This document shows positions 22 through 46,598 of a DNA stretch of 64,000 nt, piece after piece. Source of the DNA: Escherichia coli. Lineage in GTDB: Bacteria > Pseudomonadota > Gammaproteobacteria > Enterobacterales > Enterobacteriaceae. Made by a program: the position numbers and the translations under genes. The stretch is from assembly GCF_044324875.1 (NCBI RefSeq), contig NZ_CP172185.1; one strand, given 5' to 3'. A model generated the notes under the pieces. That model did no database searches. It saw only the letters and a list, made by a program, of their open reading frames with translations, and had not been told where the DNA came from. The stretch's first letter is position 1. Each line of letters opens with the position of its first letter.

Positions 22-2466
22 ATGATGATTTTGAGTATTCTCGCTACGGTTGTCCTGCTCGGCGCGTTGTTCTATCACCGCGTGAGCTTATTTATCAGCA
101 GTCTGATTTTGCTCGCCTGGACAGCCGCCCTCGGCGTTGCTGGTCTGTGGTCGGCGTGGGTACTGGTGCCTCTGGCCATTATCCTCGTGCCATTTAACTT
201 TGCGCCTATGCGTAAGTCGATGATTTCCGCGCCGGTATTTCGCGGTTTCCGTAAGGTAATGCCGCCGATGTCGCGCACTGAGAAAGAAGCGATCGACGCA
301 GGCACCACATGGTGGGAAGGCGATTTGTTCCAGGGCAAGCCGGACTGGAAAAAGCTGCATAACTATCCGCAGCCGCGCCTGACCGCAGAAGAGCAAGCGT
401 TTCTCGATGGCCCGGTAGAAGAAGCCTGCCGGATGGCGAATGATTTCCAGATTACTCATGAGCTGGCTGATTTGCCGCCGGAGTTGTGGGCGTACCTTAA
501 AGAGCATCGTTTCTTCGCGATGATCATCAAAAAAGAGTACGGCGGGCTGGAGTTCTCGGCTTATGCCCAGTCTCGCGTGCTGCAAAAACTCTCCGGCGTG
601 AGCGGGATCCTGTCGATTACCGTCGGCGTGCCAAACTCATTAGGCCCGGGTGAGCTACTGCAACATTACGGCACTGACGAGCAGAAAGATCACTATCTGC
701 CGCGTCTGGCGCGTGGTCAGGAAATCCCTTGCTTTGCACTGACCAGCCCGGAAGCGGGTTCCGATGCGGGCGCGATTCCGGATACCGGGATTGTCTGCAT
801 GGGGGAATGGCAGGGCCAGCAGGTGCTGGGAATGCGTCTGACCTGGAACAAACGTTACATTACGCTCGCACCGATTGCGACCGTGCTTGGTCTGGCGTTT
901 AAACTCTCCGACCCGGAAAAACTGCTGGGTGGCGCAGAAGATTTAGGTATTACCTGTGCGCTGATCCCGACCACCACGCCGGGCGTGGAAATTGGTCGTC
1001 GCCACTTCCCGCTGAACGTGCCGTTCCAGAACGGACCGACGCGCGGTAAAGATGTCTTCGTACCGATCGATTACATTATCGGCGGACCAAAAATGGCCGG
1101 GCAAGGCTGGAGGATGCTGGTGGAGTGCCTCTCGGTAGGCCGCGGCATCACCCTGCCTTCCAACTCAACCGGCGGCGTGAAATCGGTAGCGCTGGCAACG
1201 GGTGCGTATGCGCACATTCGCCGTCAGTTCAAAATTTCTATTGGTAAGATGGAAGGGATTGAAGAGCCGCTGGCGCGTATTGCCGGTAATGCCTATGTGA
1301 TGGATGCTGCGGCATCGCTGATTACCTACGGCATTATGCTCGGTGAAAAACCTGCCGTGCTGTCGGCTATCGTTAAGTATCACTGTACCCACCGCGGGCA
1401 GCAGTCGATTATTGATGCGATGGATATCACTGGTGGCAAAGGCATTATGCTCGGGCAGAGCAACTTCCTGGCGCGTGCTTATCAGGGCGCGCCGATTGCC
1501 ATCACCGTTGAAGGGGCTAACATTCTGACCCGCAGCATGATGATCTTCGGACAAGGAGCGATTCGTTGCCATCCGTACGTGCTGGAAGAGATGGAAGCGG
1601 CGAAGAACAATGACGTCAACGCGTTCGATAAACTCCTGTTTAAACATATCGGTCACGTCGGTAGCAACAAAGTTCGCAGCTTCTGGCTGGGCCTGACGCG
1701 CGGTTTAACCAGCAGCACGCCAACCGGCGATGCCACTAAACGCTACTATCAACACCTGAACCGCCTGAGCGCCAACCTCGCCCTGCTTTCTGATGTCTCG
1801 ATGGCTGTGCTGGGCGGCAGCCTGAAACGTCGCGAGCGTATCTCGGCACGTCTGGGGGATATTTTAAGCCAGCTTTACCTCGCCTCTGCCGTTCTGAAGC
1901 GTTATGACGACGAAGGCCGTAATGAAGCCGACCTGCCGCTGGTGCACTGGGGCGTACAGGATGCGCTGTATCAGGCAGAACAGGCGATGGACGATTTACT
2001 GCAAAACTTCCCGAACCGCGTGGTTGCCGGGCTGCTGAATATGGTGATCTTCCCGACCGGACGTCATTATCTGGCACCGTCTGACAAGCTGGATCATAAA
2101 GTGGCGAAGATTTTACAAGTGCCGAACGCCACCCGTTCCCGCATTGGTCGCGGTCAGTACCTGACGCCGAGCGAGCATAACCCGGTTGGCTTACTGGAAG
2201 AGGCGCTGGTGGATGTGATTGCCGCCGACCCAATTCATCAGCGGATCTGTAAAGAGCTGGGTAAAAACCTGCCGTTTACCCGTCTGGATGAACTGGCGCA
2301 TAACGCGCTGGCGAAGGGGCTGATTGATAAAGATGAAGCCGCTATTCTGGTGAAAGCTGAAGAAAGCCGTCTGCGCAGTATTAACGTTGATGACTTTGAT
2401 CCGGAAGAGCTGGCGACGAAGCCGGTAAAGTTGCCGGAGAAAGTGCGGAAAGTTGAAGCCGCGTAA
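22..2466 (+). CDS. fadE: Acyl-CoA dehydrogenase FadE
   Basis: 814-aa ORF starting [24 protein letters not shown], matching FadE in length and sequence from memory; ATG at 22. Confidence 0.93.
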
Positions 2467-2474
2467 TTGAATAA

Positions 2475-2499
2475 CGGAGCCGAAAGGCTCCGTTTCTTT
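2475..2499 (+). terminator. Rho-independent terminator after fadE
   Basis: Hairpin cggagcc-gaaa-ggctccg followed by tttcttt, directly after the fadE stop. Confidence 0.5.
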
Positions 2500-2508
2500 A
2501 TCCGCTAA

Positions 2509-2982
2509 TTATTTAAAATTAAAGCCATCCGGATGGTTTTCCAGGCTGCCGGTCAACGCCGCGAACAGCACCGTTTTACCATCAATCGAAAGCGCATCGT
2601 TCACATTCAACCAGGTGAGTTTCTCTTGCGACGTTTTCTCATCAATAGTCGAGAACAGCCCCGTCATCTGATTAGATTTCTCGGACCACATCACAGCGAT
2701 ACGTTGCGAGCCACAGTCATGCGGTTTGCACGCGCTCATCACCTGATACGTCTCATCTCCCAACGTTACGGTTTGTGCAGGGGTATAAGTCCCGCCTTTC
2801 ATCACCCAGGCAGGCAGCTTATGCCCTTGCACCATCTGATTAAACGCAGCTTTGGTGGTTTCGCCCTTTGCAAGGCTGCTAATGGTTAAATCATCCTGCG
2901 CCATTGCACTGGTGGCGATGACCAGAGCGGCGACTGTCGTTATTGCCTTAAACATCATTCCTCCCGAGCTTATCCTGCCCAT
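2509..2982 (-). CDS. ivy: Inhibitor of vertebrate lysozyme Ivy (periplasmic)
   Basis: 157-aa ORF with signal peptide (MFKAITTVAALVIATSAMAQDD) and a CKPHDCG motif; sits between fadE and yafV as in E. coli. Confidence 0.88.
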   Translation of the reverse strand: MGRISSGGMMFKAITTVAALVIATSAMAQDDLTISSLAKGETTKAAFNQMVQGHKLPAWVMKGGTYTPAQTVTLGDETYQVMSACKPHDCGSQRIAVMWSEKSNQMTGLFSTIDEKTSQEKLTWLNVNDALSIDGKTVLFAALTGSLENHPDGFNFK

Positions 2983-3135
2983 GTTATTAACCTCCTAAAG
3001 CCTGGCGATAACACGATAATTTGCAAATCAGATATTTCCAATATCAGCATTTGTTATCAATTTATTCTGCGCTAAGGCAACTGCCTGATAAGGTGTTAAA
3101 GTTATAAAACCCTTCGCATAAAGGAGTTGTACACC

Positions 3136-3906
3136 GTGCCTGGTTTGAAGATTACGCTTTTGCAGCAACCACTGGTGTGGATGGATGGTCCTGCCAACCT
3201 GCGTCATTTTGATCGTCAACTGGAAGATATTACCGGACGCGATGTGATCGTTCTACCGGAGATGTTTACCAGCGGCTTTGCCATGGAAGCGGCAGCTTCG
3301 TCGCTAGCACAAGATGACGTAGTGAACTGGATGACAGCCAAAGCGCAGCAGTGCAATGCGCTGATTGCAGGCAGTGTTGCATTACAAACGGAGTCTGGTT
3401 CGGTTAACCGCTTTTTGCTGGTTGAGCCAGGCGGCACGGTACATTTTTATGATAAGCGTCATCTGTTCCGCATGGCAGATGAGCATCTGCATTATAAAGC
3501 GGGCAATGCGCGAGTGATTGTGGAATGGCGCGGCTGGCGTATTTTGCCGCTGGTGTGCTACGACTTACGTTTTCCTGTGTGGTCGCGCAATCTCAACGAT
3601 TACGACCTCGCCCTGTACGTCGCCAACTGGCCGGCTCCGCGCTCTCTGCACTGGCAGGCATTGCTGACGGCCCGCGCGATTGAGAATCAAGCGTATGTGG
3701 CGGGATGCAATCGCGTCGGCAGCGATGGCAACGGCTGCCATTATCGCGGTGACAGCCGGGTGATTAATCCACAGGGCGAGATTATCGCCACCGCCGACGC
3801 GCATCAGGCAACGCGCATTGATGCGGAGCTGTCGATGGCGGCATTGCGGGAATATAGAGAAAAGTTTCCGGCATGGCGGGATGCGGATGAGTTTAGGTTG
3901 TGGTGA
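3136..3906 (+). CDS. yafV: Nitrilase-family omega-amidase YafV
   Basis: ORF translating [18 protein letters not shown] from GTG 3136, with AAGGAG 9 nt upstream; the ORF track begins at an upstream TTG (3127). Carbon-nitrogen hydrolase-like sequence. Confidence 0.85.
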
Positions 3907-3944
3907 GTGGGTGTTGTGTTTAGGGCCGGGGAGAGTCGGGCTAA

Positions 3945-4160
3945 GACTACGAAAGCCCGCTCCCCTGCGACCACTTTTATCATAGGAGTGTGGAAGCGCT
4001 TTTCCATCAATTGCGATGACGTCTTTATCATTTGATGAATGGCAATCTCGCATCCAGTTAATAAAGCATTCGTGAAATTATACTGAACGGATACAAGACA
4101 TAACTCTAATTATGGTGCCGTGAACAGGATTACCATTTTCAAAATTACGATATTATTTGC
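3945..4160 (-). pseudogene. Internally deleted remnant of an ISAs1-family (H-repeat) transposase gene
   Basis: About 200 nt align at roughly 80 percent identity with 6143-6345 of the intact transposase gene, preceded by a sequence resembling that gene's 3' end (gactacgaaagcccgctcccc versus attacgaaagcccgctcccc at 5379). No intact reading frame. Confidence 0.6.
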
Positions 4161-4177
4161 AGTAATTATGTTATTAA

Positions 4178-4690
4178 TCATTGTGATATTTCCATCTCTG
4201 TGATTAATACCGGATAAGCATTTAATTGCAGAGTTTGCACGAAATTATCGCAGATAACTGGCAATAACAATAACCCATCAGCCCGCTGCTGTAATACCTC
4301 CATTCGTTCTACTGATTCAACATTAACAACCAAACCAAGGGCATTTAGCGATTTAAGGATCTCCAGATGTTCACTCATCCAGCGCAGAGAAAAAGGATCA
4401 TCACCAATTATAAAAACAGGCCCCCAGCCGGTTAATAACTGGCGTTTCATTACGGAGCCAGGATGAAGTCGAGTACATATTACAGGAAATACCCCCTGTT
4501 GCGATGGTTCCGATGATGTGGATAATTCAGAAATATTTTCCATTGTTAGTGAAGAATTAACATCCATTAATAATGGTGAAACAACCTCACTTTCCTTGCT
4601 AGTAATGGCTGCACTAATCTGAAAGGAAAATAACAATATTATTACGTACAAACTTATTTTTAACATAACACATTCAATCCGTTTATTCAT
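4178..4690 (-). CDS. Hypothetical exported protein (N-terminal hydrophobic signal-like segment), AT-rich orphan
   Basis: 170-aa ORF with MLKISLYVIILLFSFQISA near the N-terminus; low-GC codon usage; no recognisable family. Start uncertain (4690 or 4666). Confidence 0.45.
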   Translation of the reverse strand: MNKRIECVMLKISLYVIILLFSFQISAAITSKESEVVSPLLMDVNSSLTMENISELSTSSEPSQQGVFPVICTRLHPGSVMKRQLLTGWGPVFIIGDDPFSLRWMSEHLEILKSLNALGLVVNVESVERMEVLQQRADGLLLLPVICDNFVQTLQLNAYPVLITEMEISQ

Positions 4691-4756
4691 GTTATAGAAT
4701 AATAATGCTATAAATCATCATTAATGTTCAATTATTTAATCACACAATTTAAAAAA

Positions 4757-5260
4757 TCATCGACCAATGTGAATTGGCAATGTACCACTCAAGTTAAAAT
4801 CACTGAATATTTTATCAATTTCTCTTGCAGTTTCTATATATTTAACCTCTTTCGTACTTGCATTATAAATAGCCCAAGCCTCGGGATGGGATGTTCCACC
4901 AAACCTTACAAAAAAACTTGATTTCATATTATTATATAAATTAACATCAGGAAAAGGATCTTCTCCAAAATTAGTAGTATTAAATAATGAAAGTTCGTAT
5001 CGCTTAGAAAATTCTGTTGGTAGGATAGCTTCACTGCCATCAATAGCATTCATCCAGAGTTTGTTACCATTATATTCCAACAATAATCTCTGTTTTGCAT
5101 GTGTCTTATCTCGTTCTTTAACGACAGCGAATACCTTTTTAACAACTTGCTGTGCGGATGGTCCTATTGTATTACCAAAAGCTGGCAACCCGATTTTGCC
5201 ATAAACACTCTCCTGAATGAAATAAATATCCGTTTTATCGGCCTCGACAATATCTACCAT
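4757..5260 (-). CDS. Hypothetical protein, AT-rich orphan
   Basis: 167-aa ORF on the same strand as, and immediately upstream of, the 170-aa ORF; no recognisable motif. Confidence 0.45.
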   Translation of the reverse strand: MVDIVEADKTDIYFIQESVYGKIGLPAFGNTIGPSAQQVVKKVFAVVKERDKTHAKQRLLLEYNGNKLWMNAIDGSEAILPTEFSKRYELSLFNTTNFGEDPFPDVNLYNNMKSSFFVRFGGTSHPEAWAIYNASTKEVKYIETAREIDKIFSDFNLSGTLPIHIGR

Positions 5261-5339
5261 TTATCCCTCCAAACAAGACCTGACTCCAGGACAAGAGCAT
5301 AGTGTGTAGTAAACACTTCATGCTCTTGCCCTGACCATT

Positions 5340-6560
5340 GAAATAACAACTTTCGTTTGTTTACTGTACCAGGGCAAGATTACGAAAGCCCGCTCCCCGC
5401 AAGGACTGACGCCAGGTAGTTTCTGTCCATGGCTGCTTTTCGCATCTTACGTCTTAACCCTGCCTTGAATACCTTATCATTCGTCAAAATATTAATAGCA
5501 ATGTGCCGTATCCCTGAAAATAATTCTGCTGCGTTTCCTCTTCTTATTTTGCAGTCGTCTTCATTCATTACCACGTCCAGACGCCAGTGCAGCTTATTCT
5601 CCACGTGCCAGTGGTTTCGGATTGCTGTGGCGAACTTCTCTGCGGTTAAATCAGCAGAACTGATATAATATCTGACCGTCATTTCGGGCTCTTTCTTTTG
5701 TTCTGCTATTATTGACCGAAAGGAGACTGCCACGCATAATTTCTTCAGACCTTTCCATTCAAACGTGAAATCAATAAGTTCATCAGGGACATCGCAAACA
5801 ATATGAAGACGGATTTCTTCTCTGCCGTGACTCTTTTCACTCATTGCGTAACTGTCATGCTCTGGATTATTTAATTCTTTCAGTGGGAATTTTTCCTCAA
5901 AGGCTTTATTAAGCCGCCCCTGATTTCCTTTTACAGCGAATAAATAATCACCGCCCTGTTTTTGTATCTTCTCTGCAATATCTTTCTGGCAACCCATCGC
6001 ATCAGTTGTGATGATTTTTCCTTTAATATCCAGCATGTTAAGAAGTTCTGGGATAGCTGTAATCTCATTGGATTTCTCATCCGTCTTGATCTGTCCGATG
6101 ACCAGGCTGTGCATTGTTGAGAACGCACTAATGACATGAATCGCTCCCCTGCGGCGACTCTTGTCATAAGAGTGCCGGAGCGTTTTTCCATCAATTGCGA
6201 TGACGTCTTTATCATCTGAAGTATGGCAGTCTCGCATCCAGTTAATAAAGCACTCGTGAAATTTTGCAGGACTGATACAGGATACAACTCTGGCGATGGT
6301 ATCGTGAACAGGAATACCATTTTCAAAATCACCGTATTGTTTTAAAAAATCGAGATGTGTTTCCCCAAAATCCTCTATATCTTCCCAACCTTCTGCACCC
6401 GAAATAACGGCACAAATAGTCAACAGTAGAATATCCGACAATTTATGTTCCACTTTCCAGGCTTGTCTGTAATCGGGAATAACAGAAATATGCTCCATCA
6501 ATTTTTAAGTTCCATTTTGTTCCCCTTAATTATGTAAGGAGTATTTGATCATGTATAAGT
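5340..6560 (-). mobile_element. ISAs1-family (H-repeat) insertion element; ends approximate
   Basis: Contains the intact transposase gene; element termini were not resolved, so boundaries are approximate. Confidence 0.5.
5380..6498 (-). CDS. ISAs1-family transposase (Rhs-associated H-repeat protein)
   Basis: About 372 aa from ATG 6498 (track begins at TTG 6501); sequence [46 protein letters not shown] ... [25 protein letters not shown] is characteristic of H-repeat / ISAs1 transposases. Confidence 0.85.
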
Positions 6561-6725
6561 AATAAAAAACAGCCTCAGGTAATGAGGAATATCTCAAATT
6601 TTAAACATAAAATGCGAATTATTTAGTACAAAAAAGCAGCGTTACGTGATCTTTCCCTGTGCCGGTACCTTTGTCGTTTAATCTGGCAGCTAAAGGCATA
6701 TTGTTTTCCTGTCTGGAATATCAGC

Positions 6726-6780
6726 GACAAAAAATTTAAAAAACGGTAAGGTGCTTAACTCAGTAATAATCACCTTACCG
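6726..6780 (-). terminator. Putative terminator after the cargo operon
   Basis: Inverted repeat cggtaaggtg / caccttaccg followed, on the minus strand, by a T-rich run (ttttttaaatttttt); just downstream of the 336-aa gene stop. Confidence 0.4.
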
Positions 6781-6810
6781 GACATCCTGATTTGTAGCCC
6801 AACAGGTTAA

Positions 6811-7821
6811 TCAAGTAACAGGGATAAACTGACCATCAATCAGCGAAAATACCGGAGCGTAATACCCCATACGCTCTTCACCACTTTCATCTGTAAAACG
6901 GTAAGTCAGTGGGGAATATATTGGTTTCGATTTATTATATAGCTGCACCATACGTCCACCATTCATAACCCGGACGGCATAATCGTCCCACCTGATGGGC
7001 TGCATTCTGGCTTTCCCTCCCTCCACATTATCTTTTGAGAAGAGTGAGAGTAATATGTCATCCTCAGAGTCACCGGTTGTGGCTGACCATGCCTTCAGCG
7101 CCTCTTTGTTATAAGCTTTCAGACGTGCCCTGTCCCGGCTACTGATGATGCTTGCCATTTCGGTATAGGCGGCTTTTAACTTCCGTAACTGCTCGTCGCT
7201 TCCGGTATAGGGGGTTGCCCGCGTCCAGGCCCATTCAGGAAGCCCTGTCACGGTAACTTTTTGAGTGAACTGATACACCTTCATCCCTTTCGGGAAATAG
7301 GTTTCATCAAAATAATCTGGATCAATAAATCCTGGCTCCGCCTGCTCAGCCAAAATCTCTTTCCGGATAACGGGATGCACGCTGTCTGGCCGGGCTTCAG
7401 GTATGCCCTGCTGGTTGATGGTCACTTTTATTGAAGAAAGCAGCGTTTCCTCCTGTTTAATAAAACGAACCAAATCCAGGCTGCATCCTGCTTTTGGAAA
7501 AAAACGCCCCCGTTCTTCCATACTGGCAGGCTTGTCAGAAAACCATCCTAATGCCCCAATCTCCAGACTGATTTCATTTTCTCCATTCGCCATCAGCATC
7601 ATGGCATTGGTGCTGGATATGGCCCCGGTTGAATCACCATTTGCCCGCCAGGCACTTCTTCGGTTACTGAACCCGAGGACGCCATTAGTCTTAATGGCAC
7701 AATATGACTCTTCAATATTAAACTTACTGCGAATTTTTTGCTGGTTATCGTTAGAGCAAAATCCAGTTCCCATAACAACTCCTGACAGTAAAATAACCGA
7801 TATTAAATGTTTTGCCTTCAT
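6811..7821 (-). CDS. Signal-peptide protein, candidate immunity protein of the vgrG-linked cargo module
   Basis: 336-aa ORF starting MKAKHLISVILLSGVVMGTGFC (Sec-type signal, possible lipoprotein); last gene of the vgrG-adaptor-effector operon; AT-rich. The ORF is confident; the function is inferred from position only. Confidence 0.55.
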   Translation of the reverse strand: MKAKHLISVILLSGVVMGTGFCSNDNQQKIRSKFNIEESYCAIKTNGVLGFSNRRSAWRANGDSTGAISSTNAMMLMANGENEISLEIGALGWFSDKPASMEERGRFFPKAGCSLDLVRFIKQEETLLSSIKVTINQQGIPEARPDSVHPVIRKEILAEQAEPGFIDPDYFDETYFPKGMKVYQFTQKVTVTGLPEWAWTRATPYTGSDEQLRKLKAAYTEMASIISSRDRARLKAYNKEALKAWSATTGDSEDDILLSLFSKDNVEGGKARMQPIRWDDYAVRVMNGGRMVQLYNKSKPIYSPLTYRFTDESGEERMGYYAPVFSLIDGQFIPVT

Positions 7822-7887
7822 AATTATTCTCTCTCAAAAGGGGAAAATACTCATTATACTGTTCACTTTTAATTTCTGTAATATCAC

Positions 7888-9459
7888 TTAATAATCCATA
7901 CCTATCGTCCACGTTGTCACTGGCTTCGGCGGTGTTACTTTTTTCTCCACAGTGCGTTCTTTACCGTATAAATTAACCCGTAATGGTGAATCCTTTACCT
8001 CCATAGGATCACATAACTGCCACTCAACGGTATCTTTCTTCTCAGGTTTTTCGCTCTTTTCCTTCCCCTTTCCTTTTTCATCAACTTCACCATGAGACAC
8101 ATCAATCTTAAATTCAAACTTCCCTTTAATGCCGTCATGAAATAATGCTAGGTCCAGTCCGTCATCATGTGAATCAAATCCAAATCCAGCTTTCGCTTCT
8201 ATAGAGGCAGTCGCTTCGGCGGTCAGTTGTACAACAAAAACATTCGCCTCAAACGTCGCACTCACCACACCTTTTAAACCGAGCTTGATGTTACTTTCCT
8301 TTACATTAAACTCCCATTTTTTATCCTTTTCAGCGTATACTGCGCCAAGATCAAGATTAATCTCCGCTGAAATCTCGATATAGCATTCAACACTGGCTCC
8401 GTTTTTACGGAGATATTCACGACATCTGTTGACCAATGACTCGACTTTACAATATGCACATATAAATGAAATAATATCGAATCTGAACGACGCTTCAAAA
8501 AATGGGGCACCAAACAAACCATAAAAATGACAGGGGCCATCCTGGATATCGGTATATTGATAGGCATACGATATACCCAGTTTAACGGGTTCTATTTTTG
8601 CACTGAACAATGCATATTTGCGCGTACCATTATTATTGTCAGGATCTGGCGCAAAATATTTATTGACATTCTTGACCAGAGAGTCAATTCTTCCTATCTG
8701 TTCCAGTTGCTTTGTTTGTCGAAGTTTTTTTATCTCTTTTTCATATTCACTTGTGTGTTCAACATTAGCTATTTTTACGCCAAAATCGACAGTCAGGGAA
8801 GTCTTGTTTATCCACTCAAACTCAGCAGTGGTATTTGTCCAGCCGCTACGGAGTTTATTTTTATCCCTGGGCTTGGTGTTCTCCATTGCGTCCCTGGCTT
8901 TTATTCTTTCGTCACGCCGCTCTTTTACTGTTCTCGTCTGTTTTGATGACGAAATCTCATAGCTGAACCCTGTAGTAAACCTAATTTCCACTGTAGGATA
9001 AACATCAATTTCAACATAATTGCCACATTCGTAACAACTGTCAATTCTGACTGAATAATGGGCAGGTTCATAATGATTCTTAAGTGGAGAGGATATTGCC
9101 CCCAAATAATCCCATGGTACTCGAAATGTACCCATAGCAATTATTTCACCTTCAGACAAGTTATCATCCAAAGTGACCTTATTAGGTATTCCGAAAGGTT
9201 GCAGTATCTTATGATTATTTTCTGATTCTTCCTCTAACCATGCCTCATGTGTTCCACTTTTATCGCACTGGTAGGTAATGGTAATTATACCATCACATCC
9301 GGAACCATCATCCAGTAGCTTAAAACGCGCCACTCCTTCTTTTGACCAGAAATGTTTCTCGCCGGCCTCTGGAAAATCACTAATAACATCAAAAATACAT
9401 GGATCAGGAATGCCGCATTCCACACAGGGCTTTCCGGCTGTCGAAGATGGAGATGTCAT
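7888..9459 (-). CDS. Candidate T6SS cargo effector of unknown activity
   Basis: 523-aa ORF directly downstream of the DUF4123 adaptor; no signal peptide; about 13 cysteines including three C-x-x-C pairs (C12/C15, C142/C145, C334/C337); lysine-rich C-terminus; no G-x-S-x-G lipase motif found by eye. The ORF is confident; the function is inferred. Confidence 0.55.
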   Translation of the reverse strand: MTSPSSTAGKPCVECGIPDPCIFDVISDFPEAGEKHFWSKEGVARFKLLDDGSGCDGIITITYQCDKSGTHEAWLEEESENNHKILQPFGIPNKVTLDDNLSEGEIIAMGTFRVPWDYLGAISSPLKNHYEPAHYSVRIDSCYECGNYVEIDVYPTVEIRFTTGFSYEISSSKQTRTVKERRDERIKARDAMENTKPRDKNKLRSGWTNTTAEFEWINKTSLTVDFGVKIANVEHTSEYEKEIKKLRQTKQLEQIGRIDSLVKNVNKYFAPDPDNNNGTRKYALFSAKIEPVKLGISYAYQYTDIQDGPCHFYGLFGAPFFEASFRFDIISFICAYCKVESLVNRCREYLRKNGASVECYIEISAEINLDLGAVYAEKDKKWEFNVKESNIKLGLKGVVSATFEANVFVVQLTAEATASIEAKAGFGFDSHDDGLDLALFHDGIKGKFEFKIDVSHGEVDEKGKGKEKSEKPEKKDTVEWQLCDPMEVKDSPLRVNLYGKERTVEKKVTPPKPVTTWTIGMDY

Positions 9460-9480
9460 ATAATCTATCCGTTTGTCTTT

Positions 9481-10320
9481 TTATTGTGGGATAAATCCCA
9501 GTTCCTGTTGTGCAAGTTCATGTACCCGAATATGTCCCGGGTATGACTGATTGCTGAGTTGTTCATACCAGTCATCCGGAATATATCTGAGATCGATTAT
9601 ATTTTTTTTCAGTAATATAAGCGTCATTGTTCTGACGGAACGATCATCTGCTATATTTAATGACTGGCAAAAAGAGAAATAATCTTCTGCCAGAATTCGG
9701 GATGATTCAGCTTTTGATGAATCATCCCATCCGTTTTTATCTACATTTTCTTCGATAAATGCAGATAATATATCAAGATAATTATCCCGTGCCTTTCGTT
9801 CCAGTTGGCTATATTGTCTGTAACTCAGCGTCAGTTGTGATGGCCGTTCTGCCCTTATATTCATAGTTTCTGCGGGACGGACGGAAGAAAAATTATCCTC
9901 ACGACATTCTTCACCATAACGGGTACTTAGCTGTCTGACGGGACTGATAAAAGAAAGACGCTGGCGGGGGGTCAGAACTTCCACTAATACCCATATATTC
10001 CGGGGATCATAAAATCGCATGAGAACAGGTTTCTCCTGTTCGGGGATCCTAACCCACAGATAACGTCTGAAGTGTTGCTGTAGCTCACGCATGGATGACT
10101 CAGAAGTCAGATATATTCCCCATGGCGACGCCTTAACACTCAGCCATGCTTCAACCTCCGGAACGACTTCCACGAGATAGGGGGCTAGCGCGACCAGATC
10201 CAGTTGTATGGGTTCTGCATACAGACAACAGTGCGGGGGATTCACCTCGTTCAGAAAATCCAGCAATCCTTCCTCCACAGCGCCATCCACAATGGCGTAC
10301 TGCACGGGTGCCGTTTCCAT
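9481..10320 (-). CDS. T6SS adaptor/chaperone, DUF4123 (Tap) family
   Basis: About 279 aa with N-terminal YAIVDGA and LMRFYDPR motifs typical of DUF4123 adaptors; ATG at 10320 overlaps the vgrG TGA stop (TGATG). Confidence 0.7.
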   Translation of the reverse strand: METAPVQYAIVDGAVEEGLLDFLNEVNPPHCCLYAEPIQLDLVALAPYLVEVVPEVEAWLSVKASPWGIYLTSESSMRELQQHFRRYLWVRIPEQEKPVLMRFYDPRNIWVLVEVLTPRQRLSFISPVRQLSTRYGEECREDNFSSVRPAETMNIRAERPSQLTLSYRQYSQLERKARDNYLDILSAFIEENVDKNGWDDSSKAESSRILAEDYFSFCQSLNIADDRSVRTMTLILLKKNIIDLRYIPDDWYEQLSNQSYPGHIRVHELAQQELGFIPQ

Positions 10321-42983: not shown

Positions 42984-43060
42984 TGGCGGAACGGACGGGA
43001 CTCGAACCCGCGACCCCCTGCGTGACAGGCAGGTATTCTAACCGACTGAACTACCGCTCC
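42984..43060 (-). tRNA. aspU: tRNA-Asp (GUC), distal gene of rrnH
   Basis: 77 nt, identical to the aspV sequence at 34760-34836; located just 3' of the 5S rRNA. Confidence 0.97.
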
Positions 43061-46403: not shown

Positions 46404-46479
46404 TGGTGGAGCTATGCGGGATCGAACCGCAGACCTCCTGCGTGCAAAGCAGGCGCTCTCCCAGCTGAGCTATAGCCCC
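46404..46479 (-). tRNA. alaV: tRNA-Ala (UGC), rrn spacer
   Basis: 76-nt reverse complement of GGGGCTATAGCTCAGCTGGGAGAGCGCCTGCTTTGCACGCAGGAGGTCTGCGGTTCGATCCCGCATAGCTCCACCA. Confidence 0.96.
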
Positions 46480-46521
46480 ATAACATGTAGTTAAAACCTC
46501 TTCAAATTTGCGGTGCAAATT

Positions 46522-46598
<77 letters not shown>

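Follow-up and report, generated by a model that had tools for sequence, protein, structure and literature searches.

A deleted ISAs1 remnant and a chimeric ISEc1-type copy flank two cargo genes next to yafV, at one edge of the aspV type VI secretion island of Escherichia coli

The window analyzed here, a stretch of 64,000 nt of Escherichia coli DNA, carries the aspV type VI secretion system (T6SS) island (described in PMC2808357 and PMC2941450), which corresponds to the third T6SS of EAEC 042 (Ec042-0210 to 0226) and to PAI I of LF82. In the window, the island spans yafV (3906) to yafT/aspV (33648 and 34760–34836, respectively). The gene yafV is conserved in the chromosome and is the fixed border of the variable region. 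It is followed by a short ISAs1 fragment (the stump), two cargo ORFs, a palindrome, and a full ISAs1 copy (Table 1). As claimed in the initial annotation, the two ISAs1 copies are in the same orientation, the transposase sense being on the minus strand in both, and they flank the orphan ORFs. In a literature search, no paper joining yafT, aspV, and T6SS was found, and none joining H-rpt and ISAs1.

Table 1. Features at the yafV edge of the island, with their positions in the window
Feature	Position	Strand	Basis
yafV (2-oxoglutaramate amidase)	3136–3906	+	RefSeq annotation of the near-identical strain 300444; colinear in K-12, C43, and others
ISAs1 stump	3938–4158	-	Sequence matches to the full copy; RefSeq incomplete ISAs1 pseudogene
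Deletion junction, a single CGCTCCCC octamer	3958–3965		Octamer present twice in the full copy, flanks matching on both sides
Cargo ORF 1, DUF2859/PFL_4695-family 'integrating conjugative element protein'	4178–4690	-	TIGR03765, PF11072
Cargo ORF 2, 167 aa, uncharacterised family	4757–5260	-	Homologues and their gene contexts
47-nt palindrome, arms CAGGRCAAGAGCAT	5287–5333		dG -29.9 kcal/mol, z -4.5
ISEc1-like ISAs1 element, 1,290 bp	5370–6659	-	Ends from copies at other loci and C43/042 comparisons
Transposase ORF, 372 codons from ATG 6498	5380–6498	-	NF033564 profile; PGAP 1,119-nt CDS in strain 300444
Crossover interval of the chimeric IS	5749–5803		Left of 042 IS#2 type, right of 042 IS#3 type
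Disabled canonical start, ATG GAA CTT AAA AAT TGA	6498–6515	-	Alignment with C43 and 2EC1; sequence read

The full copy is near-complete and, from its sequence, live-looking. Its assignment to the ISAs1 family was confirmed by the NCBIfam profile NF033564 (418.5 bits, cut-off 70, matching positions 1–314 of the 314 in the model) and by its RefSeq name, 'ISAs1-like element ISEc1 family transposase'. Elements of this family are about 1.2–1.33 kb long, with one long ORF (ISfinder). Besides the match over the whole profile, the copy has this length, a single long ORF, and short terminal inverted repeats, with IRL (5370–5387, CAGGGCAAGATTACGAAA) and IRR (6642–6659, CAGGGAAAGATCACGTAA) complementary at 15 of 18 positions. 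The element therefore runs beyond position 6560, which had been wrongly given as its right limit. The description of the transposase as intact is correct for the ORF, which is open and matches the whole model, but not for the canonical MELKKL start (6515). This start is out of frame, disabled because its A-run has five bases instead of six, and the TGA so produced overlaps the ATG at 6498. The same 1-nt loss is present in IS#3 of strain 042. No target-site duplication was detected at the IS, whose flanks (CTGTAC on the left and TGCCGG on the right) show no direct repeat, as would be expected if they derive from two different parental copies.

In strain 042, the stump is identical and the cargo is the same, but two IS copies come after the cargo, and a group II intron interrupts the second of them; the window has only one, chimeric copy. 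In the window IS, 9 of the first 10 informative sites are IS#2-like and 42 of the next 44 are IS#3-like, and its outer flanks match the left of IS#2 and the right of IS#3, respectively. These sites show that the window IS arose by crossover between two tandem copies like those of strain 042.

Pairwise alignment of the stump with the full copy showed 168 identities in 201 ungapped positions on the same strand (3958–4158 against 6142–6342; E = 7e-54). This value, 84%, is somewhat higher than the roughly 80% first estimated. The similarity is real and not a low-complexity match, with exact runs of up to 32 nt (then 23, 15, and 12 nt). To the left, 3938–3965 matches 5372–5398 at 26 of 28 positions and contains the outer inverted repeat, here degenerate, with the transposase stop codon and the last codons. 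This end is fused to an internal segment (3966–4158, approximately codons 53–119), whose translation aligns with residues ~53–119 of the ISAs1 transposase, colinear and in frame, with in-frame stops and without the DDE domain. The 5' end is gone too, the equivalent of 6343–6659, including the IRR, being absent. By this significant nucleotide homology, colinear and in frame with the transposase, the stump is an ISAs1 remnant, and RefSeq labels it an incomplete ISAs1 pseudogene, a PGAP call independent of the present analysis.

The element from which the stump descends is diverged throughout, with 5 mismatches in 15 positions plus an indel at the IRL tip, 84% identity over the internal 201 nt, and 80% in a right-end relic in strain C43. 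The internal part is 83–84% identical to every ISEc1-type copy, while those copies are 94–99% identical to one another. Among 5,426 complete E. coli genomes, no full-length relative exceeded ~88% nucleotide identity. At the protein level none was closer than ~81%, and a search with the stump ORF yielded nothing but short fragments and that ORF itself, named 'Aec6' in UniRef. The 22 fixed differences between the stump and ISEc1 fall 7/4/11 by codon position (chi-square p ~0.19), a distribution that does not separate a diverged functional ancestor from decay in situ.

Both cargo ORFs are low in GC (30–37%). The product of the first scored 120.6 bits with TIGR03765 (cut-off 59.75) and E = 2.4e-28 with PF11072, and its N-terminus is hydrophobic. 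The second had no match in Pfam, NCBIfam, or PADLOC, and its AF2 model (pLDDT 84) had none among solved structures; its remote relatives adjoin hcp or sit within T6SS clusters elsewhere. One full-length relative has 190 aa, and where the gene downstream encodes the DUF2859 protein here, it encodes a membrane protein of roughly 145 aa elsewhere. The cargo is single-copy, at no more than two places per genome, and 760 of 763 places are chromosomal. A search of plasmids yielded only chromosomes that were mislabelled or records resembling chromosomes, together with two plasmid records in which the stump is present along with ORF 1. The spacer adjoining the IS is confined to this chromosomal locus and includes the palindrome, located 36 nt outside the left end of the IS, with arms that resemble IS termini. 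A MITE family was ruled out for the palindrome, which is single-copy and locus-specific in 546 genomes. An Rfam scan of 2400–7900 gave no match, and promoter and terminator scans gave background levels only.

The octamer CGCTCCCC occurs only four times on both strands of the window, and in the full copy it lies at exactly both breakpoints of the stump, 5391–5398 and 6142–6149, implying a 751-bp deletion between the repeats. This supports the earlier suggestion that the 3' end of the gene was joined to an internal segment by deletion between short repeats. The identical junction was observed in every stump-bearing lineage examined (O18, ATCC 25922, 042, 2EC1, isolate 12, E. whittamii, and Escherichia sp. 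E1V33) and, because it is common to all of them, it represents one old event. In isolate 12 (L019) and E1V33, the element has only the 751-bp deletion and continues to a right terminal inverted repeat, which shows a unit of the form IRL–deletion–IRR. The right end and flank of isolate 12 recur as the C43 relic, whereas those of E1V33 differ. Beyond the same stump, isolate 12 carries an RHS core gene.

The stump, two cargo ORFs, and IS are all annotated in RefSeq. Of the 5,426 complete E. coli genomes, about 540 have the whole arrangement, which is also conserved in Escherichia whittamii; because of this distribution, it is old. The undeleted K-12-type junction is found in about 2,830 of the 5,426. 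The junction between yafV and the IRL, with the same degenerate inverted repeat, is shared by K-12, C43, O18, 042, and the window. An alternative allele is present in L008, where a full ISAs1, placed and oriented alike, lies upstream of a 76%-identical cargo, and the homology of its spacer to the window starts at the 5' breakpoint of the stump.

In K-12, this position is occupied by the pseudogene yafF (b4503), which the initial annotation suggested to be a scar of this island. The colinearity of K-12 with the window extends to 3965, and yafF is an ISAs1 remnant at the same yafV junction, with the same degenerate outer repeat and orientation. However, what it retains is 280 nt from the 3' end of an ISEc1-type copy (equivalent to 5381–5660 of the window, 98.9%) before it is broken, whereas the stump is equivalent to 5372–5398 plus 6150–6342, so that the two overlap only in their first 18–28 nt and share neither the retained part nor the deletion. 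The K-12 side also differs in having no octamer junction, 201-nt internal piece, cargo ORFs, or T6SS, and the yafU/ykfM DNA adjoining yafF has no counterpart in the window. Because a different part of the element was retained, with neither cargo nor T6SS, K-12 carries a remnant of the same IS insertion, but not demonstrably of the island.

Taken together, we consider it probable that the stump is an old, diverged ISAs1 element that suffered a deletion between 8-bp repeats and then a second deletion extending to the cargo, followed by the arrival of a chimeric ISEc1-type copy downstream. A sequence-diverged ISAs1 (H-repeat) would have inserted beside yafV before E. coli diversified, and would have lost 751 bp between two direct CGCTCCCC repeats within its own sequence. 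In the lineage of the window, a second deletion would have removed the 5' part of the stump, the right inverted repeat, and ~150 nt of spacer, leaving an immobile 220-nt stump that abuts the two cargo genes. Later, an ISEc1-type copy, itself the crossover product of two tandem copies, would have come to lie downstream in the same orientation. The order of these events, and the loss of the 751 bp within one element and not between two tandem ones, are what we infer from the comparisons above. A history with a single element also requires a later replacement or conversion of its body in C43 and K-12, as in both of them the same degenerate IRL is followed by an ISEc1-type body (97%).

In a different, less likely history, the junction would have been made between two tandem ISAs1 copies, an ISEc1-type copy at yafV, of the kind still found in C43 and K-12, and a diverged one upstream of the cargo. 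In this history, the octamer-to-octamer deletion took most of the first copy, the intervening DNA, and the 3' part of the second. In C43, a full ISEc1-type copy at the junction is followed within ~175 nt by the diverged right-end relic with the flank of isolate 12. Tandem arrays are usual for this IS (042, K-12 RhsC, and K-12 RhsE), and in L008 the IS is directly upstream of the cargo and not at the yafV junction. The divergence of the stump interior from the otherwise homogeneous ISEc1-type copies would also be explained. Against this, the outermost tip of the yafV IRL is diverged in C43, K-12, and the stump alike, which is more in keeping with an old diverged element than with one of ISEc1 type, and the IRL–deletion–IRR unit of isolate 12 and E1V33 is bounded by diverged ends. 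To the left of the junction, a stretch of 18–28 nt is not long enough to be assigned to either type.

That the stump, cargo, and IS are a present or former composite transposon, by which the cargo moved here as a unit, is very improbable. The direct copies do flank a low-GC cargo, and the 76%-identical cargo allele is likewise linked to an ISAs1 copy. However, the stump–yafV junction is common to more than 2,800 genomes without cargo, no target-site duplication was found around the IS or around the pair, and in E. coli chromosomes the single-copy cargo occurs at this locus only. Moreover, the stump has no right end and its outer repeat is degenerate, so that usable outer ends are lacking, and PMC3032704 states that transposition of H-repeats has not been observed. 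Finally, a chance or low-complexity match, with a fragment not derived from an IS, can be dismissed given the ungapped alignment and its E value, the recognizable transposase residues in the stump frame, and the independent PGAP annotation.

Under the favored reading of an old, internally deleted element, the direct repeats may still be substrates for RecA-type recombination or gene conversion, remodelling this end of the island. Hybrids between stump and ISEc1 sequences, which switch once in the interval 4038 to 4069 (pattern SSSSSSSSSIIIIIIIII?III), were found in at least 128 genomes. Two stump classes can be distinguished, one uniformly diverged and with cargo, the other hybrid and without it. 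The 2EC1 hybrid was considered as a cargo-deleting crossover between stump and IS and rejected, as the hybrids of isolate 12 and E1V33 terminate in diverged right ends of their own, a structure consistent with a conversion patch or a double exchange. The chimeric and hybrid elements document that ISAs1 copies have recombined at the yafV locus, and the proposal that the two copies mediate deletion or exchange is plausible. However, the predicted stump × IS product removing the cargo, used as a synthetic recombinant query, had no full-length match in 5,426 complete E. coli genomes. Given the absence of this product, and with the whole arrangement preserved in E. whittamii, the cargo is at most rarely lost in this way today.

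The principle is known from direct IS copies flanking dispensable genes, where homologous recombination removes the interval, for example in the loss of the T3SS of Aeromonas salmonicida, as stated in PMC3661141 and PMC7823893. The chimeric IS of the window is such a product, but stump and IS are homologous over just 201 nt (84% identity), and no exact run exceeds 32 nt. A broader proposal, which we regard as doubtful, is that the stump is a recombination anchor older than the split of E. coli and E. whittamii, swapping terminal modules of the aspV T6SS; the module of the window would comprise an orphan effector-like gene, of an uncharacterised hcp/T6SS-associated family, and a DUF2859 periplasmic protein. 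If so, module gain or loss would change interbacterial competition. The sole potentially useful lead is the family of the 167-aa cargo ORF, with its relatives beside hcp and inside T6SS clusters.

The arrangement is ordinary and already known in kind, since decayed and tandem H-repeat/ISAs1 copies are familiar in E. coli and the stump is annotated in hundreds of RefSeq genomes. The H-repeat/ISEc1 copies of the K-12 Rhs loci (yhhI, ydcC, ybfL, ybfD, ybfQ, and yncI) are the same element as the window IS, which is 95.6–96.2% identical to yhhI, ydcC, and ybfL. At these loci, too, copies of one orientation are arrayed head to tail, and the arrays include truncated as well as internally deleted members. 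For example, the RhsC array consists of 1–380, 1–1290, and 21–910 plus 1224–1290, and in RhsE a 67%-diverged pseudogene is paired with an intact copy. Unlike them, the array of the window adjoins yafV at the border of the aspV T6SS island, by a VgrG-linked effector module and not after rhs, and the end points of their deletions differ from those of the stump. The value of the locus is as a worked example of repeats reshaping the edge of a type VI secretion island. The stump provides a cleanly resolved 8-bp microhomology deletion, the chimeric and hybrid copies are direct sequence evidence for ISAs1 recombination at the variable end of the island, and what yafF is a remnant of is explained. In O18-type strains, a different effector module lies beyond the IS (PAAR-like/DUF2169; Cpe1/Cpi1 in the annotation of N44).

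The copies considered here lie at the yafV edge of the known aspV type VI secretion island. K-12 and the window are colinear as far as 3965 and again from 33648, and the ~30 kb between these points are this island, whose core genes reach ~33300; it has already been described in EAEC 042 and LF82 (PMC2808357, PMC2941450). At this boundary, a stump of an ISAs1 element adjoining yafV and a full ISEc1-like ISAs1 element (IS), with two cargo ORFs between them, are ordinary, annotated and ancient IS debris. The initial annotation, in which an intact ISAs1 transposase and an internally deleted direct copy flank a cargo whose deletion or exchange they could mediate, was correct in its finding and largely right in its interpretation.

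Features of the window from fadE to the tRNA-Asp gene aspV
Feature	Coordinates	Strand	Remarks
fadE	22-2466	+	
ivy	2509-2982	-	
yafV	3136-3906	+	
ISAs1 stump	3938-4158	-	RefSeq: incomplete ISAs1 pseudogene with internal stop
DUF2859 / PFL_4695-family protein gene	4178-4690	-	RefSeq: 'integrating conjugative element protein'
167-aa ORF	4757-5260	-	RefSeq: 'hypothetical protein'
Full ISAs1 element	5370-6659	-	1,290 bp; RefSeq: ISEc1-family transposase
vgrG	10320-12278		in aspV island
hcp	12499-13017		in aspV island
yafT	from 33648		K-12 colinearity with the window restarts here
tRNA-Asp aspV	34760-34836		after yafT

The claimed similarity between the stump and the full transposase copy was borne out by pairwise alignment, in which 6142-6342 and 3958-4158 were identical at 168 of 201 bases (84%, ungapped, E 7e-54). 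A second piece, 3938-3965, matched 5372-5398 at 26 of 28 positions and comprises the outer inverted repeat, the stop codon and the last transposase codons. The pieces meet in one CGCTCCCC (3958-3965), common to both; this octamer, present only four times in the window, marks precisely the two breakpoints in the full copy, at 5391 and 6142. The stump therefore lacks 751 bp internally relative to the full element, as proposed when it was described as a 3' end fused to an internal segment by a short-repeat deletion. Its whole 5' part, beyond the equivalent of 6342, is missing as well. A 162-codon ORF (3565-4053, minus strand), running from the stump reading frame antisense through the yafV 3' end, is artefactual, a consequence of the pseudogene frame; public databases list it as 'Aec6' or as an ISAs1 fragment.

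In the B strain C43(DE3), a complete ISAs1 element (1,137-nt CDS) occupies exactly the same yafV junction as the stump, and K-12 yafF corresponds to the initial 280 nt of a C43-like copy (window equivalent 5381-5660, 98.9%), after which comes unrelated yafU/ykfM DNA. Because the outer repeat is degenerate in the same odd way in K-12, C43 and the stump (CGGGGTATTAC/CGGGCTAAGAC; consensus CAGGGCAAGAT), all three derive from one insertion. The undeleted type of junction, as in C43 and K-12, was found in ~2,830 genomes. The K-12 pseudogene yafF, proposed as a scar of the island, is indeed of this family and beside yafV, but yafF and the stump are different derivatives of the IS, with no more than the outermost 18-28 nt in common. 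Past the full IS of C43(DE3), at 8229-8481 of the compared locus, were the remnant of a group II intron and two right-end relics, one of 14 nt and a diverged one of 78 nt, indicating that at least three tandem ISAs1 copies were once present in the B-strain locus.

Compared with each of the ISEc1-type copies examined, the 201-nt segment of the stump was 82-84% identical; among themselves these copies were 94-99% identical. In isolate 12 and Escherichia sp. E1V33, the element has the 751-bp deletion only and continues to a right end, which in isolate 12 is a diverged terminal sequence (...ATCACGTGATGCTTTTCCTG, flank CTATTAATAACC...). C43 repeats this right end as an 80%-identical relic, followed by 99%-identical flank. 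Three parts, namely the tip of the left terminal inverted repeat, the right end and the segment inside, are diverged to a similar degree and probably belonged to one old element, to which the octamer deletion would have been internal. An origin of the junction from two tandem copies, one of ISEc1 type at yafV and one diverged, seems rather unlikely: it would directly explain the ISEc1-type body in C43 and K-12 and agrees with the tandem-array habit of ISAs1/ISEc1, but the similar degree of divergence of the three parts, the best evidence at hand, argues for the single old element. The allele of OU349849.1 has a full ISAs1 at this position, oriented alike and upstream of a 76%-identical cargo, and homology to the window restarts at ~4150-4160, the 5' breakpoint of the stump; it follows that a second deletion took away the 5' part of the IS together with its right repeat and ~150 nt of spacer. 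This alternative yafV-edge allele also comprises an 87-aa ORF within a unique segment of 387 nt; its ISEc1-like element is followed by DUF2859 and 165-aa ORFs (76% nucleotide identity) and, further out, by thioredoxin-like and TIGR02270-family genes and a Mn-catalase region.

The true end of the full element, 6659, is 100 bp further than first annotated. Its termini were complementary at 15 of 18 positions, and no target-site duplication was found around it. The transposase ORF (5380-6498, 372 codons) covers the entire ISAs1 transposase model (418.5 bits); the canonical MELKKL start is out of frame, an A-run being short by one base, and the TGA created by this loss overlaps the ATG at 6498. 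Outside the left end of the IS, at a distance of 36 nt, there is a 47-nt palindrome with a perfect stem (5287-5333; dG -29.9 kcal/mol, z -4.5). Its arms, CAGGRCAAGAGCAT, resemble ISAs1 termini, and across 546 genomes it is single-copy and restricted to this locus; it may be what is left of two IS ends, or else a site favoured for insertion.

Strain 042 (L005, 9404-13898) has two tandem copies, IS#2 and IS#3, 19 bp apart, the latter interrupted, at the position equivalent to 5576, by a group II intron (ltrA); an 86%-identical remnant of the 3' end of this intron follows the IS in C43(DE3). In the window IS, the left flank is that of IS#2 and the sequence is of IS#2 type until ~5749; from ~5803 it is of IS#3 type, and the right flank is that of IS#3. 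Of the informative sites, 9 of the first 10 were IS#2-like, and 42 of the 44 that follow were IS#3-like. Judging by the flanks and these sites, the single IS is a chimera of the two tandem copies found in 042, the expected product of a direct-repeat crossover with the interval lost. Hybrid stumps (2EC1 type, pattern SSSSSSSSSIIIIIIIII?III), stump-like to 4038 and ISEc1-like from 4069, were found in at least 128 genomes. Because the ISEc1-like tract of isolate 12 and E1V33 gives way again to a diverged right end (which, with its flank, is in isolate 12 the old one also present in C43), a cargo deletion was rejected, and such hybrids are better explained by a gene-conversion patch or a double exchange. 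The proposal that the copies could mediate deletion or exchange was thus upheld by the chimeric IS and the hybrid stumps, but the predicted product of a crossover between stump and IS, built synthetically by joining 3900-4050 to 6235-6800, matched nothing over its full length among 5,426 genomes. The homology available to such a crossover is 201 nt long at 84% identity, its longest exact run being 32 nt, so that the event is expected to be rare, in agreement with the conserved arrangement in E. whittamii.

The H-repeats of the K-12 Rhs loci are the same element and show the same behaviour: RhsC has three abutting copies (1-380, 1-1290 and 21-910 + 1224-1290), and RhsE a 67%-diverged pseudogene, then an intact copy. 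They are listed as IS though their transposition has not been observed (PMC3032704). A composite transposon formed by the stump and the IS was rejected: the stump has a degenerate outer repeat and no inner end, a duplication is absent, and the single-copy cargo is in at most two places per genome, nearly all of them chromosomal.

At least 80% of 3000-7000 was covered in 539 of the 5,426 complete E. coli genomes, and the cargo was present in 758 (median one copy, maximum two per genome). The octamer junction was also found in two other Escherichia species, so the arrangement is ancient or was passed between species: E. whittamii has all of it (colinear at 92%, both cargo ORFs intact), and E1V33 has the stump without the cargo. 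Between E. coli and E. whittamii, nucleotide identity was 94-99% for cargo and spacer and 91% for yafV; the greater likeness of the cargo than of this flanking core gene hints at a possible recent horizontal exchange. The DUF2859 protein was more diverged (89% amino-acid versus 94% nucleotide identity).

No family could be assigned to the 167-aa ORF in Pfam, NCBIfam or PADLOC. An exhaustive profile-free search placed it in an uncharacterised family, with relatives of ~190 aa at 30-40% identity, one of them 16 nt after an orphan hcp and another within a T6SS cluster, between tssC and a small-ORF array. Several further relatives, located elsewhere, are each directly followed by a hydrophobic/membrane ORF of ~145-157 aa, as at most loci examined. 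Because of the hcp/T6SS siting and the trailing membrane ORF, this suggests a candidate family of small T6SS effectors with a membrane immunity protein, a lead rather than a result. The E. coli protein is missing ~30 internal family residues, and its ORF is followed by the unrelated DUF2859 gene, not by a membrane ORF. Its structural model was confident (pLDDT 84, pTM 0.79), with no counterpart among solved structures, and its AFDB matches were all uncharacterised proteins. The DUF2859 gene is outside any conjugative element and far from one; it sits in the slot that an immunity-like gene occupies beside the relatives of the neighbouring ORF.

Just past the IS, a module on the minus strand (6811-12278) encodes VgrG, a DUF4123 protein (a weak match to a Tla1-like chaperone) and ORFs of 523 and 336 aa. 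O18/N44-type strains have another module there, with DUF2169, a PAAR-like protein (Cpe1 in the N44 annotation) and the immunity protein Cpi1, and homology to the window restarts at 10773, within the vgrG 3' end, which makes the IS one border of an exchangeable effector cassette. A second tRNA-Asp (GTC) in the window, identical to aspV over 77-79 nt, with tRNA-Ala and tRNA-Ile nearby (regions 42984-43060 and 46404-46598), suggests that a ribosomal RNA operon lies downstream of the island.
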